DNA of 64,000 bases from Octopus sinensis (Eukaryota): NCBI RefSeq assembly GCF_006345805.1, contig NW_021835972.1, forward strand, positions 1-64,000, given 5' to 3'. Under the pieces are notes generated by a model. That model was not told where the DNA came from and did no database searches. It was given only the letters and a program-made list of their open reading frames with translations. A program made the translations under genes and the position numbers. Position 1 is the stretch's first letter, and each line of letters opens with the position of its first letter. Shown in pieces: positions 9,503 through 44,145 of this stretch.

Positions 9503-9795
9503 ATTATTTGAATTATTTGATTGAAGGTCTTCTACAAACTAAGCAACCTTAGATGTAAGCTGCTCAGTGCAACTAAATTCACTGTTTTGTCCCCTATTCC
9601 TGCTATAGTCAGAACACGGCATGACTGGGTTAAGATAAGGTTTAGAATATAACTTAACAAAAATTTCTTAGGTAAAATTAGGATTGGAGGTTTTAATTTA
9701 AATATTTGACATTTCAGAACAAGCATCTCTGTGTCCTGGAACCTTAAAAACAGTCAAGAATTTTGAGGGATTTATAAAAGCAATTCACTTTCTAA

Positions 9796-10153
9796 ATTAT
9801 TTACATTATTTACATTTGACAGATATTTGTCCTCATCTTGTTTGTTGTTAACACAATGTTTCAGCTGATATACCCTCCAGCGTTCTTCAGGTGTCTTGGG
9901 GAAATTTCGGACCTGGGTTCTCATTCCTAAAGTATTTTCGATGTTATTATTATTTATCAGGTCACTGCCTGGAATTGAACTCAGAATCTTGGGGTTAGTA
10001 GCCCGTGCTCTTAACCACTATGCTATATGAAGGCTGGAGGGTATATCAGCCAAAACATTGTGTTAACAACAAACAAGTTGAGGACAAATATCCGTCAAAT
10101 GTAAATAATGTAAATAATGTACATAATTCCTCATCTCTTAAATATAGAACTGA
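9796..10153 (-). mobile_element. tRNA-headed SINE with hammerhead tail (9796-10029, -) plus inverted copy of its tail (10029-10153, +)
   Basis: Minus-strand head catatagcatagtggttaagagc..gagttcaattcc; 9796-9881 is inverted at 10033-10119; ttcactttct on both flanks. Confidence 0.85.
9850..9895 (-). ncRNA. Minimal type I hammerhead ribozyme motif in SINE tail
   Basis: gacac CTGAAGA ac gctg gagggtatat cagc t GAAAC ATT gtgtt; stem I gacac/gtgtt, stem II gctg/cagc. Confidence 0.7.
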
Positions 10154-10869
10154 GTTCACTTTCTCTTAGGAATATAACTTAATGAAGATTTCTCAGGTAA
10201 AATTAGGATGGGAGGTTTTAATTTAAATATTTAACACTTCAGAACAAGCATTTCTGTGTCCTAGAATCTTTAAAATATTCAGGAATTTTCAATGGTTTGG
10301 TATAGCAATTAACTTCTTCCCTATCAGACCTGATCCTAACTTTATTCTCCCTCTGGAATCCTGAGCCAAAAAATAAACAGTTGTATATACCACTGAAGAG
10401 TAATGATTACAAGCAAACTAATGGATAGAGCTGGTTGCATGTTCTTTTATCTATGTGTGTTGTTTATTACTGATTTACCAAGAATCTGACAGAGATGATG
10501 CTCAACTCTTCAGCTTTCGGATTATTCTGACAGATGTAATGCTTATTCACATTGCTATGGATTAGTCATGCCTTACCTTGTAGCTTTGAAATTTCAATGA
10601 TGTGATTGTTTATTTTTGGCGTAATATTGTGGGTCGAGTGTAAGAGGCTGGATCTGGCCAGTTTGAAGGTAAATCAGATTATTTTGGCTGGACATGGCCA
10701 GTTTAACCTTTTATCATTCGGATTGCTCTGTCAAATGTATTGCTTATTTATTCACATTGTTTTGGATTAATCATGCATTGTCTTGTAGCTTTGAGGTTTC
10801 AATCACACAACTGTTTATGTTCAGAATGAAATTGTAGGATGAGTGTGAGAGGCCAGATCTCTCTCTCTC

Positions 10870-23897: not shown

Positions 23898-24891
23898 TGT
23901 ATCACTGTGCATATGTGAATGTGCTATTGCTGGTGTGTGGACATATGTATGGGGGTATATGCTAGCGTGTGTGTGTGTGTGTGGGGGGGTAATAAATATT
24001 TTTGCATACATGTGTACTCATGTATGTGCATGTACCTGTGTTTGTGCATACATGTGCATGCGTGCGTGTATGTGTGTGTGTGTGTGTGTTGTGTGTTGTG
24101 TGTGTATGTGTGTGTGTGGTGTGTGTGTGTGGTGTGTGTGTGTCTGTGTGTGTGTGTGTGTCTGTGTGTGTGTGTGTGGCAGTAAGCTTTCCATTCAGGC
24201 TAAACAGATTTGGTCTGAATCATCCTTATTTAATCATTTCTTCCTTCTTTGACAAAAGTAAATCAGTTAATGTTAACGGCAATGTTTTTGTAGCAGCAGA
24301 TGTTCTTGTCGAATGAAGCGGTCGTTCGGCAACCGGTGGCGGCGGCGGTGGTGGTGATGGCAGCGCGGGAAGTGTGTGTGTGTGTATGTGTGTGTGTGTG
24401 TATGTGTGTGTGTGTGTATGTGTGTGTGTGTGTGTGTGTCCCTACTTAAACCAGTAGTTTCGCTGTCAGGCGCTTTGTTTGCAATTTCCCTAATGATGTT
24501 CATTGTTGCACAAATTGCGCCTTCGTCATTATAAGAGCGCAGATTTCGACAATGGGTTGCGAGTGGATGTGCACCGAGCATTGACAGGTTGATCTGCTTA
24601 GTGAATAATTTCTGCTTCTGCTGCTGTTGTTGTTGTTGCAGTAATGGGATATTCTTAAATGGTTATTGACTGGATTGGCGCCAAAGAATTTAGGCGGATA
24701 TATGCTTGGAAACAGGTTGAATTAACGACCAACCTGCTGTCGTTCTCAGACAGGGAAAGTGTGAAACTCTAAGACTACCGCAGAAAAGACCTATTCAATT
24801 GTTTTTGTAAAATTTTAAACAAGGTTTCCCTGTTATTACCACCAAGTTTATTTACCATTTTGTTTTCTTAAAAAAAAAAAAAAAAGCATAC

Positions 24892-25063
24892 AGGCGCAGG
24901 AGTGGCTGTGTGGTAAGTAGCTTGCTAACCAACCACATGGTTCCGGGTTCAGTCCCACTGCGTGGCATCTTGGGCAAGTGTCTTCTGCTATAGCCCCGGG
25001 CCGACCAATGCCTTGTGAGTGGATTTGGTAGACGGAAACTGAAAGAAGCCTGTCGTATATATG

Positions 25064-25094
<31 letters not shown>

Positions 25095-25310
25095 ATGTGT
25101 GTGCTTTTGTCCCCCTAGCATTGCTTGACAACCGATGCTGGTGTGTTTACGTCCCCGTCACCTAGTGGTTCAGCAAAAGAGACCGATAGAATAAGTACTG
25201 GGCTTACAAAGAATAAGTCCCGGGGGTCGATTTGCTCGACTAAAGGCGGTGCTCCAGCATGGCCACAGTCAAATGACTGAAACAAGTAAAAGAGTAAAAG
25301 AGTAAAAGAG
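24892..25310 (+). mobile_element. SINE family B, full length
   Basis: Near-consensus copy with (taaaagag)n tail. Confidence 0.9.
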
Positions 25311-29593: not shown

Positions 29594-29798
29594 CAGGGTA
29601 TCCCTAAAGTCTGGACTCGAAGGCAAAATGTATATTTTCAAGAAATAAGTGTAAAATTTTCAACAACATTTTATTCACTACGCCATAACTACTACACCAT
29701 ATGCCTACGGGCATATAGCGTGGTGGTTAAGAGCGCAGGCTACTAACCCCAAGATTCTGAGTTCGATTCCAAGCACTGACCTGAACAACAACAACAAC

Positions 29799-29832
<34 letters not shown>

Positions 29833-30150
29833 TCGAAAAATACCTTAGGAATGAGGACCCAGGTTCGAAATTTCCCCAAGACACCTGAAGAAGGCTGGAG
29901 GGTGTTAACAACAAACAAGATGAGGACAAATATCCGTCGAATGTAAACAATGTGAATAACATTTTATTCAGTTGGAATACTAACAAATGACGTCTTCAAT
30001 ATGATTTCCACCATTTGTGATGCAGAGGCTGATGTGCTTTTGTAAGACTTATGAGAAGCCGATGCTATAACCCCACATAGCCATAAGTTTGAGCACATTC
30101 ACTCTTTATGCATTCCATCAAGATGTGTTGTGTCTGTGATTTTCATTGAG
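29594..30150 (-). mobile_element. Tc1/mariner 3' end remnant interrupted by the SINE-hammerhead element
   Basis: TIR-like cagggtatccctaaagtc; minus strand CITNGGNHIEDVIC* resembles a transposase C-terminus. Confidence 0.6.
29678..29957 (+). mobile_element. Second tRNA-headed SINE with partly deleted hammerhead tail
   Basis: Head gggcatatagcgtggtggttaagagcg..gagttcgattcc from 29709; gacacCTGAAGAaggctggaggg then deletion of the GAAAC segment; TSD aacattttattca. Confidence 0.85.
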
Positions 30151-30161
30151 TAAAAAATATA

Positions 30162-30938
30162 TTCTTTTATTCTTTTATCTGTTTCAGTCATTTGACTGTA
30201 GCCATGCTGGAGCACTGCCTTTAGTTGAGAAAAAAAAATATTGAATCATATTTTTAAAAAAATAGCCTTGCTTCCTCCCCATATCTTGACCTTTATTCCT
30301 TGTAAGCCTAGTACTTATTCTATCAGTTTCTTTTTTGCTGAACTGCTAAGTTACAGGGACGTAAACACACCAACATCGGTTGTCAAGCGATGTGAGGGGA
30401 CAAATACAGACACACAAACTTATACATACATATATATATATATATAAATATATATATATATATTTAAAAATTAAGGGTAAAAATTGATATTAGTCAATTA
30501 AAACCAGTGGTCTAGTATATTAAAAAGAATCCGAAGATTAAAATATTTATATATACCAATTAAGGACTGAACACGAAAAAGTGGACAGTCAACATGCTAG
30601 ATATAGACGTCAAATCGCCATTCTCCACAAAGATTATGTTCTCAAATAAAATAAAATTTTATTTCATTTGAGAACATAATCTTTGTGGAGAATGGCGATT
30701 TGACGTCTATATCTAGCATGTTGACTGTCCACTTTTTCGTGTTCAGTCCTTAATTGGTATATATATATATATATATATATATGACGGGCTTCTTTCAGTG
30801 TCCATCTACCAAATCCACTCATAAGGCTTTGGTCGGCCCAAGGCTATAGTGGAAGACACTTGGCCAAGGTTCCATGCAGTGGGACTGAACCCGGAACCAT
30901 GTGGCTGGTAAGCAAACTACTTACCACACAGCCACGCC
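30162..30938 (-). mobile_element. SINE family B with an insertion in its (TA)n tract
   Basis: Tail 30162-30420, head 30783-30938. Confidence 0.85.
30549..30764. repeat. Near-perfect palindrome, 108-bp arms, no spacer
   Basis: Arms are reverse complements with one mismatch; centre 30656/30657; one-sided extension 30463-30548. Confidence 0.95.
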
Positions 30939-36899: not shown

Positions 36900-37660
36900 A
36901 AATTGAGATAAGGGTTGTAAATGCAACCCTCCATGGGATAACATATATCCAATATACTGCTAGTGGGGTACCCAACAAAGTTAATGCATAAATGTTAAGA
37001 ATTGCGATGCAATTAATTCATATTCTGCATTATATGGGCAAAGGTAAAATGTTTTACCACAAATTCATAATACAAAATAAGAAAATGGAGAAATACATCC
37101 AAATCAAATATCAACTACCAGATAGTACCCAATCACATACTTTATTAAACCACTACATAAGAAACTTTAAGGTCAAACATAATAATATAGAACAAAACAG
37201 TGTACATAAAGGAGTAATATGATACAATAAGTACAATATGTATAAGAGAATATAAATATAAATAAATATAAATATAAACTACATCTTACAGCTGTTTCGG
37301 CCATGCAGATAAGTATGTCTCATTTTACTTATATTAGCCATGTGTAGTGGTCAATATGTAGTTATAAATGAGTCACATTTATAACTACATATTGACCACT
37401 ACACATGGCTAATATAAGTAAAATGAGACATACTTATCTGCATGGCCGAAACAGCTGTAAGATGTAGTTTATATTTATATTCTCTTATACATATTGTACT
37501 TATTGTATCATATTACTCCTTTGTGTACACTGTTTTGTTCTATATTATTATGTTTGACCTTAAAGTTTCTTATGTAGTGGTTTAGTAAAGTATGTGATTG
37601 GGTACTATCTGGTAGTTGATATTTGATTTGGATGTATTTCTTCATTTTCTTATTTTGTAT
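36900..37660. mobile_element. Penelope-type inverted insertion: ~300-bp arms (37070-37370 / 37376-37660) plus one-sided extension
   Basis: Arms are reverse complements around agtca; contain the hammerhead 3' half CGAAACAGCTGTA; (TA)n on both flanks. Confidence 0.85.
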
Positions 37661-43025: not shown

Positions 43026-44145
43026 AGGCACAGACGTGGCTGTATGGTTAAGAAGCGGTGAGCTGGCAGGAACGTTAGCACGCCGGGCGAAATGCGTAGC
43101 CGTATTTCATCTGCCGTTACGTCCTGAGTTCAAATTCCGCCGAGGTCGACTTTGCCTTTCATCTTTTCAGGGTCAATAAATTAAGTACCAGTTACACACT
43201 GGGTTCGATGTAATTGACTTAATACCTATGTCTGTCCTTGTTTGTCCCCTCTGTGTTTAGCCCCTTGTGGGCAATAAAGAAATAAGAAATGTTAGCACGC
43301 CGGGCGAAATGCTTAGTGGTATTTCATCTGCCGTTACGTTGTGATTCAAATTCCGCTGAGGTTGACTTTGCCTTTCATCCTTTCGGGGTCGATAAATTAA
43401 GTACCAGTTACACACTGGGTTCGATGTAATCGACTTAATTCCTATGTCTGTCCTTGTTTGTCCCCTCTGTGTTTAGCCCCTTGTGGGTAATAAAGAAATA
43501 GGTATGGTTAAGAAGCTTACTTCCCACTTGCATGTTTCAGGTGCACTCTCGCTCCATGTCTATCACATTAGCCCCTGGCTGACCAAAGCCTTGTGGGTTT
43601 TGTAGATGAAAACTGAAAGAAGCCCTTCGTATATGTACATGTGGTTGTGTCTCCTTATCTTGACCTTGTGTGATTGCTGTGAATGAATATCATTCATTCC
43701 CAATCTGCTGCAGTGCACATGTTCTGGCTGTGGGGAAATATTACCTTATTTGGAGGCAGGTAAGGGTTGGTGGCAGAAAGGGCACCTGACTGTAGTAAAT
43801 TTGCTTTGGTAAACTCCATCTGACCCATGCAAGCATGGAAAAAGTGGACATAAAAACAATGACCATGATGATTATGATGATGAAAGCCTTGTGGATTTAG
43901 TAGATGAAAACTGAAAGAAGCCCTTCGTATATGTTTTTGTCCCCTTGTCTTGACGTCATGTGATTGTTTTGAATGAATGTCATTCATTCCCAGTCTGCTG
44001 CAATACACATGTTCTGGCCATGGGGAAAATATTACCTTATTTGGAGACAGGTAAGGGTTGGTGACAGAAGGGGCACCTGACTGTAGCAAATTTTCCTTGG
44101 TGAACTCTATCTAACTCATGCAAGCATGACGATTATGATGATGTT
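43026..44145 (+). mobile_element. Family D SINE (B-type head, C-type tail) with nested family A dimer (43054-43500) and a tandem partial duplicate (43883-44145)
   Basis: TSD gtatggttaagaagc around the A dimer; duplicated body starting aaagccttgtgg. Confidence 0.8.

Follow-up and report, generated by a model that had tools for sequence, protein, structure and literature searches.

Sequence make-up of an octopus Penelope-like element with a tRNA-headed terminal repeat suggests that the whole protein-coding element is likely transcribed by Pol III

Pol III normally serves short non-coding RNAs, and stretches of at least four T act as its terminators. The accepted rule, as stated in the available portions of PMC10886601 and PMC5786205, assigns Pol II to autonomous retroelements and Pol III to SINEs. 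tRNA-derived SINEs, defined as in these texts, have an A/B-box tRNA head, a length of ~250-280 nt and thousands of copies with a common 5′ end. A small-RNA-derived Pol III promoter can also lie in a terminal repeat and drive transcription from repeat to repeat, as in the TRIMp3 elements Cassandra, Helenus and Ajax; these are non-coding LTR elements, and their autonomous partners are argued to need Pol II (available portions of PMC10886601). The Penelope/Poseidon type of Penelope-like elements (PLEs), as described in the accessible text of PMC11167929, PMC3846280 and PMC8557442, has a single ORF encoding a reverse transcriptase (RT) followed by a GIY-YIG endonuclease at the C terminus, a terminal repeat (pLTR) that carries a minimal hammerhead and overlaps the start of the ORF, two 3′ ends ~30 nt apart, an inverted 5′-truncated arm, ~10-bp target duplications and partial tandems. 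The promoters described for PLEs are Pol II-like (PMC2377424, PMC3846280 and PMC8557442, in the parts accessible). Finally, Sm-alpha and the non-LTR retrozymes are tandem non-coding arrays that have a type I hammerhead, are processed at the ribozyme and are linked to PLEs (accessible text of PMC6765202 and bioRxiv 10.64898/2026.07.22.740005); Sm-alpha has a Pol III promoter (PMC6765202, same portion).

The octopus repeat analysed here has features of each of these systems. It shares with Penelope/Poseidon elements every property listed above, but, unlike the PLEs described in those texts, it has an A/B-box head of tRNA origin at the start of its pLTR, its copies end for the most part precisely at that head, and its ORF is without TTTT runs. 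In its head, length, copy number and common 5′ end it resembles tRNA-derived SINEs, whereas its tail is the 5′ coding end of an autonomous partner rather than a LINE 3′ UTR, and its head is part of an autonomous element, no separate lineage having been detected. The closest design analogues, by the available text on them, are Cassandra, Helenus and Ajax, with the differences that use of the promoter is predicted here and that the octopus repeat belongs to a protein-coding Penelope. Like Sm-alpha and the retrozymes it has a type I hammerhead and a link to PLEs, but its copies are dispersed, head-to-head, span the cut site and are linked to an ORF. We found no tRNA-headed or Pol III PLE described in the literature searched, although a SINE name for the short unit may already exist in Repbase, in Dfam or among the octopus SINE families of 1994. 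The accessible part of the bioRxiv preprint on the retrozyme-PLE link does not mention tRNA, Pol III or octopus, and that of the octopus repeat annotation PMC13282606, supplements excluded, does not mention a hammerhead or pLTR.

One copy of the repeat lies at 9796-10152 of the window, the 64,000-nt stretch of octopus DNA that was analysed. A sequence-only reading had described a head with A and B boxes, (AAT)n, a hammerhead, an inverted copy of the tail and flanking 10-mers, and this layout is indeed present, on the minus strand. The tRNA-derived head (9958-10029, minus strand) lacks the first 3 nt of the family head and contains an A box at 10025-10015 and a B box at 9980-9971, recognized by the box consensus. 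It is followed on the same strand by the (AAT)n spacer (9943-9957), the length of which differs between copies, and by the start of the Penelope ORF (9796-9924), whose frame is open in the window from the ATG at 9924 through the hammerhead to the short 3′ end at 9796, predicted to be the first RT start site. The minimal type I hammerhead (9850-9895, minus strand; features of the descriptor in the accessible part of PMC4209133) reads, in order, stem I, the CUGANGA core (9890-9884), a bulged A, stem II, GAAAC and the palindromic stem III; in this copy it has decayed, with damage in stem II and at two CpG positions. On the plus strand, an inverted 5′-truncated second arm (10029-10152) ends at the long 3′ end, which carries the ~30-nt Penelope ‘tail’. 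This arm is 94% identical to the main arm across 90 nt, meets the head at a 3-nt microhomology and, when translated, weakly matches residues 21-59 of the intact homolog P0002 (17/40 identical, E=0.011). Target-site duplications of 10 bp flank the insertion (9784-9793 and 10155-10164, plus strand). The element was inserted at the junction of an older 146-bp direct repeat, 84% identical (9645-9790 versus 10170-10315); the right 10-mer, however, falls outside that repeat and so can still be interpreted as a target duplication. A search of the window with ARAGORN gave no tRNA.

A second copy, proposed by the same reading, is present on the plus strand at 29709-29959, with a full head, an expanded (AAC/AAT)n, the hammerhead and the short 3′ end, but its description needs correction: it has its own 13-bp target duplication (29665-29677 and 29958-29970), a short inverted fold-back of the head (29678-29708, minus strand), and a 19-nt deletion that removed the 3′ half of its ribozyme. 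Elsewhere in the window we noted a near-perfect 96-bp palindrome (30609-30704) and a MITE-like 193-bp inverted repeat, 98% identical, with a 205-nt spacer (37070-37660).

In the host genome (2.72 Gb) the repeat query returned 3,794 candidates, of which 40 were scored, and a 31-place head pattern with at most one mismatch matched 7,235 times, compared with 0 for the reversed control. The family has decayed: copies lie 4-7% from the majority sequence, and the longest stop-free stretch among 30 RT loci is 333 aa. Contigs from three other species labels span 30/30 bins of the long element. At two loci (L062:93-1442 and L086) the 3′ end of a restriction-like-endonuclease LINE, presumably of Hero/Dong-R4 type, lies inside the (AAT)n spacer, which makes the spacer a target for microsatellite-specific LINEs.

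The family majority fits the minimal PLE hammerhead descriptor (accessible part of PMC4209133), with the CUGANGA and GAAA core, a bulge between 9 and 10.1, the G10.1-C11.1 pair and palindromic 15.2-16.2, which agrees with the earlier assignment to a minimal type I hammerhead of the Penelope kind; both window copies fail this descriptor, and 20/95 copies retain an intact core. In the natural copy L003, stem I and stem II both fold. The ancestral GAAACGTT that had been proposed is also supported, the CpG in stem III having C in 146/184 and G in 104/177 aligned pieces. The Rfam model Hammerhead_1 (RF00163), which the sequence-only reading had put forward as a check, did not recover the repeat: neither the window stretch nor an intact copy matched it, or a tRNA model of Rfam, at E≤10. 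The best 30 genome matches to Hammerhead_1, searched for a partner element, belonged to other hammerhead families. A different abundant type I hammerhead family (L151-L180) dominates the Rfam matches in the host genome, and one of its loci, L163, adjoins a Neptune-type GIY-YIG fragment. Changes in the ribozyme core after insertion (31/911 versus 255/5,411) gave no clear signal of selection. As a monomer, the ribozyme is predicted to lack activity.

The derivation of the head from a tRNA, claimed earlier, also holds: A and B boxes are both intact in the family majority, and the head is ~57-63% identical to most of 20 distinct genomic tRNAs (taken from 30 loci). The best match is tRNA-Arg(TCT), at 50/79 columns, and none of the 20 tRNAs is a clear donor. 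Relaxed ARAGORN settings call the majority head tRNA-Ser; we give this no weight, since similarly relaxed settings gave noise everywhere.

A Pfam GIY-YIG search for the partner yielded no match to the repeat in the best 30 loci and 20 larger regions, and these 30 loci are mostly Neptune-type, judged by linker cysteines. An abundant Neptune-type PLE family (L186, L187, L037 and L038) has several intact 781-aa ORFs; with the descriptor used, no canonical hammerhead was found nearby. The partner was traced through recurrent sequence upstream of the head in RNA reads. A 31-nt motif just upstream of the head has 1,073 genome matches, and in 30 such loci that were fetched, the DNA before the head, which the loci have in common over as much as 1.25 kb, is GIY-YIG and RT coding sequence, with the stop of the ORF 29 nt before the tRNA head. 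The hammerhead ‘tail’ is the first ~53 codons of this same ORF. Tandem head-ORF-head copies (L308 and others) have the head-hammerhead unit on both sides of the ORF, giving the order head, (AAT)n, beginning of the ORF with the hammerhead inside it, RT, GIY-YIG, stop, 29 nt and next head. In the tandems L308, L324 and L317, the frame from the ATG just after (AAT)n crosses the hammerhead, continues as the RT ORF and can be aligned with P0002 from residue 18, the whole ORF covering residues 18-844. It encodes, in a single frame, an RT (Pfam RVT_1 on L300, E=3.5e-10) and then a C-terminal GIY-YIG endonuclease, the region of which is 47% identical to the homolog. Natural translations, inspected by eye with the criteria in the accessible text of PMC8557442, have the DKG motif and the endonuclease CCHH but no CX2-5CxxC linker; Neptune-type loci, by contrast, do have the linker cysteines. 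By these sequence motifs the element is placed among the Penelope/Poseidon-type PLEs.

The host genome thus has an autonomous Penelope/Poseidon-type element of which the repeat is almost certainly the pLTR. This does not support the view of the family as a separate, non-autonomous SINE with a borrowed tail: the unit adjoins the ORF without a break at either end, and its tail is N-terminal coding sequence of the Penelope ORF. The stubs behave as a SINE would, and the small-RNA-derived head with A and B boxes that defines a SINE is there, but two other defining traits are absent: the unit is not a non-coding entity distinct from its partner, and its 3′ end is formed by either of two positions inside the PLE ORF rather than by a LINE 3′ tail or an A-rich or simple-repeat end. 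One could still suppose that the short copies are themselves masters, forming an independent Pol III SINE that uses the Penelope protein in trans, with the long element on another promoter. Short head-started arms exceed ORF-linked ones ~5:1, free copies are slightly less diverged (4.5% versus 5.1-7.0%), A and B boxes occur in every long-tailed stub, and pLTRs suffice for trans mobilisation in rotifers (accessible part of PMC3846280). However, a comparison of 63 ORF-linked with 92 free head-started copies, a small sample against >7,000 copies, revealed no diagnostic position: the majority base is equal at each compared position except hypervariable CpG-type and 9-bp-repeat sites, and one clear non-CpG polymorphism is equally frequent in both (8/43 ORF-linked versus 26/145 free). 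Furthermore, the Anolis template needs ORF sequence 3′ of the priming sites (available portion of PMC11167929), which the stubs do not have, and a T-free ORF would be left unexplained. We therefore consider an independent SINE improbable.

Inverted arms, set out in the earlier reading as a test of Penelope mobilisation, are far commoner in this family than in two other abundant tRNA-headed SINE-like families searched alike (window 43055-43290 and 24881-25225, each with several window copies and no hammerhead core). An inverted arm lay within 100 bp at 20/29 best-hit loci and 15/29 tail-selected loci, compared with 0/29 and 1/29 in the controls (Fisher p=8e-12 for 20/29 versus 1/58). Junctions were 47 head-to-head versus 1 tail-to-tail. 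Flanking duplications of at least 10 bp, mostly 10-14, were found in 17/30 pairs (one a TA microsatellite), compared with 0.3% of mismatched flank pairs. Most 3′ ends (190/250) fall in two windows ~30 nt apart (89 and 101), and 44/46 outward-facing pairs, tail-selected loci left out, have one long and one short 3′ end. Together with partial pLTR tandems, a 5′-truncated inverted arm, a one-sided 30-40 nt tail and a short target duplication, all present, and with the ORF linkage, this footprint bears out the earlier proposal of mobilisation by the Penelope RT/GIY-YIG protein. An inverted pLTR with a one-sided tail is described for PLEs in the available text of PMC8557442 and PMC3846280, and for Anolis Poseidon (PMC11167929, in part) the tail corresponds to the sequence that separates two internal sites of RT initiation, each of the two strands is cut and then extended, and the ribozyme need not cleave.

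In the octopus family, ribozyme cleavage does not define the inserted copies, because these span the cut site. Ends close to it, at a distance of up to 5 nt, are few (4/250 3′ ends and 5/197 5′ ends), and a direct neighbour copy was present at 0/29 best-hit loci, so that the family does not consist of head-to-tail tandem monomers bounded by the ribozyme cut, as retrozymes do. Amplification in the manner of retrozymes or Sm-alpha, by hammerhead cleavage of tandem transcripts and rolling circle, could be suggested by the type I hammerhead with its palindromic stem III and by the schistosome precedent for Pol III combined with a hammerhead (PMC6765202, accessible part). These counts, and the Penelope character of the two-site 3′ ends and head-to-head inversions, make it extremely improbable, as they do a LINE-mobilised SINE, for which a poly(A) or simple-repeat end is also missing. 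As to how the Penelope machinery produces the two arms, variants common to both were found at 11/309 (3.6%; shuffles mean 1.3%, maximum 3.2%), and 5/6 pairs with a minor core variant are discordant between arms; this comparison is not decisive, and fold-back and two-template routes probably both occur.

Template starts were judged from the 5′ ends of copies. In a set made up of the first 30 exact matches to the head on contig C1, 21 have their 5′ end at −9 to +3 (one of them ORF-linked through an internal deletion), 4 end at +5 to +10, and 5 continue into the ORF. The upstream truncation rate, estimated from 30 loci and maybe higher near the 3′ end, predicts ~4% of ends in the −9 to +3 window. 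Across the genome, the 7,235 matches to the head motif versus 1,073 to the upstream motif amount to a ~6-fold step at the head. Full-length copies in which the 5′ head is present number 7, of which 4 start at that head and 3 run back into the previous unit; since these 3/7, like the 5/30 heads above, continue upstream, some templates had a more distant 5′ start. The 5′ end of the head coincides with a 5-bp hairpin, which accounts for the symmetrical fold-backs seen there in 4/30 heads. RT fall-off at this hairpin could contribute to the pile-up and is a confounder.

The pile-up might indeed be only that, if a tRNA or SINE fragment had come by passive insertion into the 3′ UTR of a Penelope that Pol II transcribes, with short copies 5′-truncated at the hairpin and TTTT lacking through chance and A-rich make-up. 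The fold-back palindromes in 4/30 heads fit this account, as do the palindromic inverted junctions of rotifer PLEs (PMC3846280, in part), the resemblance of a tested Penelope promoter to TATA-less LINE promoters (PMC2377424, in part) and the P value of only ~0.01-0.02 for the T-runs, described below. On the other hand, most head-started copies have no fold-back of at least 9 nt, the family majority has an undamaged A box and B box, the head is marked by a ~6-fold step, no more than 29 nt separate the stop from the head, so that another promoter would hardly fit, and the 98 comparison loci considered below together have no T-run depletion. Passive capture of this sort is in our view unlikely, and initiation by Pol III at the tRNA head, as suggested by these sequence features, is probable.

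T-runs (TTTT or longer) numbered 12 over 41.4 kb in one sample of 27 copies and 17 over 33.3 kb in a second, overlapping sample of 27, and no run is common to more than two copies in either, which indicates a source without T-runs over the covered body (~2.6 kb). The copy L317 has 0 T-runs versus 3.7 expected from synonymous shuffles (P=0.008). Such shuffles, which keep the base composition unchanged, predict 1.6 T-runs per kb, giving a Poisson P(0) of ~0.018 for one 2.55-kb source at a composition-matched rate; significance (P ~0.01-0.02) refers to one source sequence, the pooled counts of 5 versus 40 not being independent. Among other PLE loci of the host genome, 18/18 have at least one T-run, with 2/18 at P=0.025. 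In 80 relatives (27-49% identity) we counted 555 T-runs versus 511 expected, with runs in 79/80, the exception being a 747-nt piece, and a B box was found within 500 nt downstream of the ORF in 0/44 relatives with sequence covering the ORF end. One related Poseidon-type metagenome ORF (L330) has 1 T-run in 2,346 nt (P=0.045), with no B box found beside it. Judged from sequence features, read-through of the whole ORF by Pol III is about evenly balanced.

RNA reads of the repeat come equally from both strands, their depth tracks copy number, and they do not pile up at the head or at the cut site; the libraries being fragmented cDNA, of a run picked on its species label, the reads say little for or against Pol III use or cleavage. 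None of the listed sequence sources carrying the repeat was recorded as being of RNA origin. At L002:1474-1749, RNA reads of run X22 listed A>G at 27 and T>C at 32 places, versus 7 and 7 in the contig run X15, and place 1609 differed in 26% versus 0.3%; this looks like A-to-I editing, expected if inverted pairs form double-stranded RNA, though the two runs differ in species label.

We propose that an autonomous Penelope/Poseidon-type element carries the repeat as its pLTR, with the head likely acting as the Pol III promoter for its template RNA. Pol III would start at the head and read ~2.9 kb through the ORF into the next repeat, the loss of TTTT runs from the ORF permitting read-through. By analogy with Anolis Poseidon (available portion of PMC11167929), the Penelope protein would nick both target strands and prime RT from two internal positions, which in this element would lie at about +125 and +155 nt from the start of the ORF. 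If priming took place on the 5′ repeat, no more than ~240-270 nt would be copied before the RNA 5′ end at the head, which would give rise to thousands of SINE-looking stubs, while priming on the downstream repeat of a read-through transcript would yield truncated or full-length copies of the ORF. Two outward-facing cDNAs, one per site, would have their 5′ ends joined by microhomology, producing head-to-head inversions with 10-14 bp duplications; alternatively, the cDNA may fold back on the small hairpin at its start. Translation may come from Pol II read-through transcripts. The full picture, of an autonomous element with a Pol III-made ~2.9-kb template, a captured tRNA promoter and a T-run-purged ORF that spawns its own ‘SINE’ as an obligate by-product, stands in our estimate at even chances.

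The family is a large natural record of Penelope integration, and the near-obligate pairing of long and short ends (44/46) speaks for priming at two sites and on two strands in vivo, a mechanism demonstrated until now in vitro alone. If true, a Penelope driven by a tRNA promoter would break the rule that assigns Pol II to autonomous retroelements and Pol III to SINEs, and would erase the division of labour between SINEs and LINEs. It would also be a new route to SINE-like families without recombination of heads and tails, and would raise the question of how such a Pol III RNA is translated. In the octopus itself, thousands of copies would be mis-annotated as SINEs.
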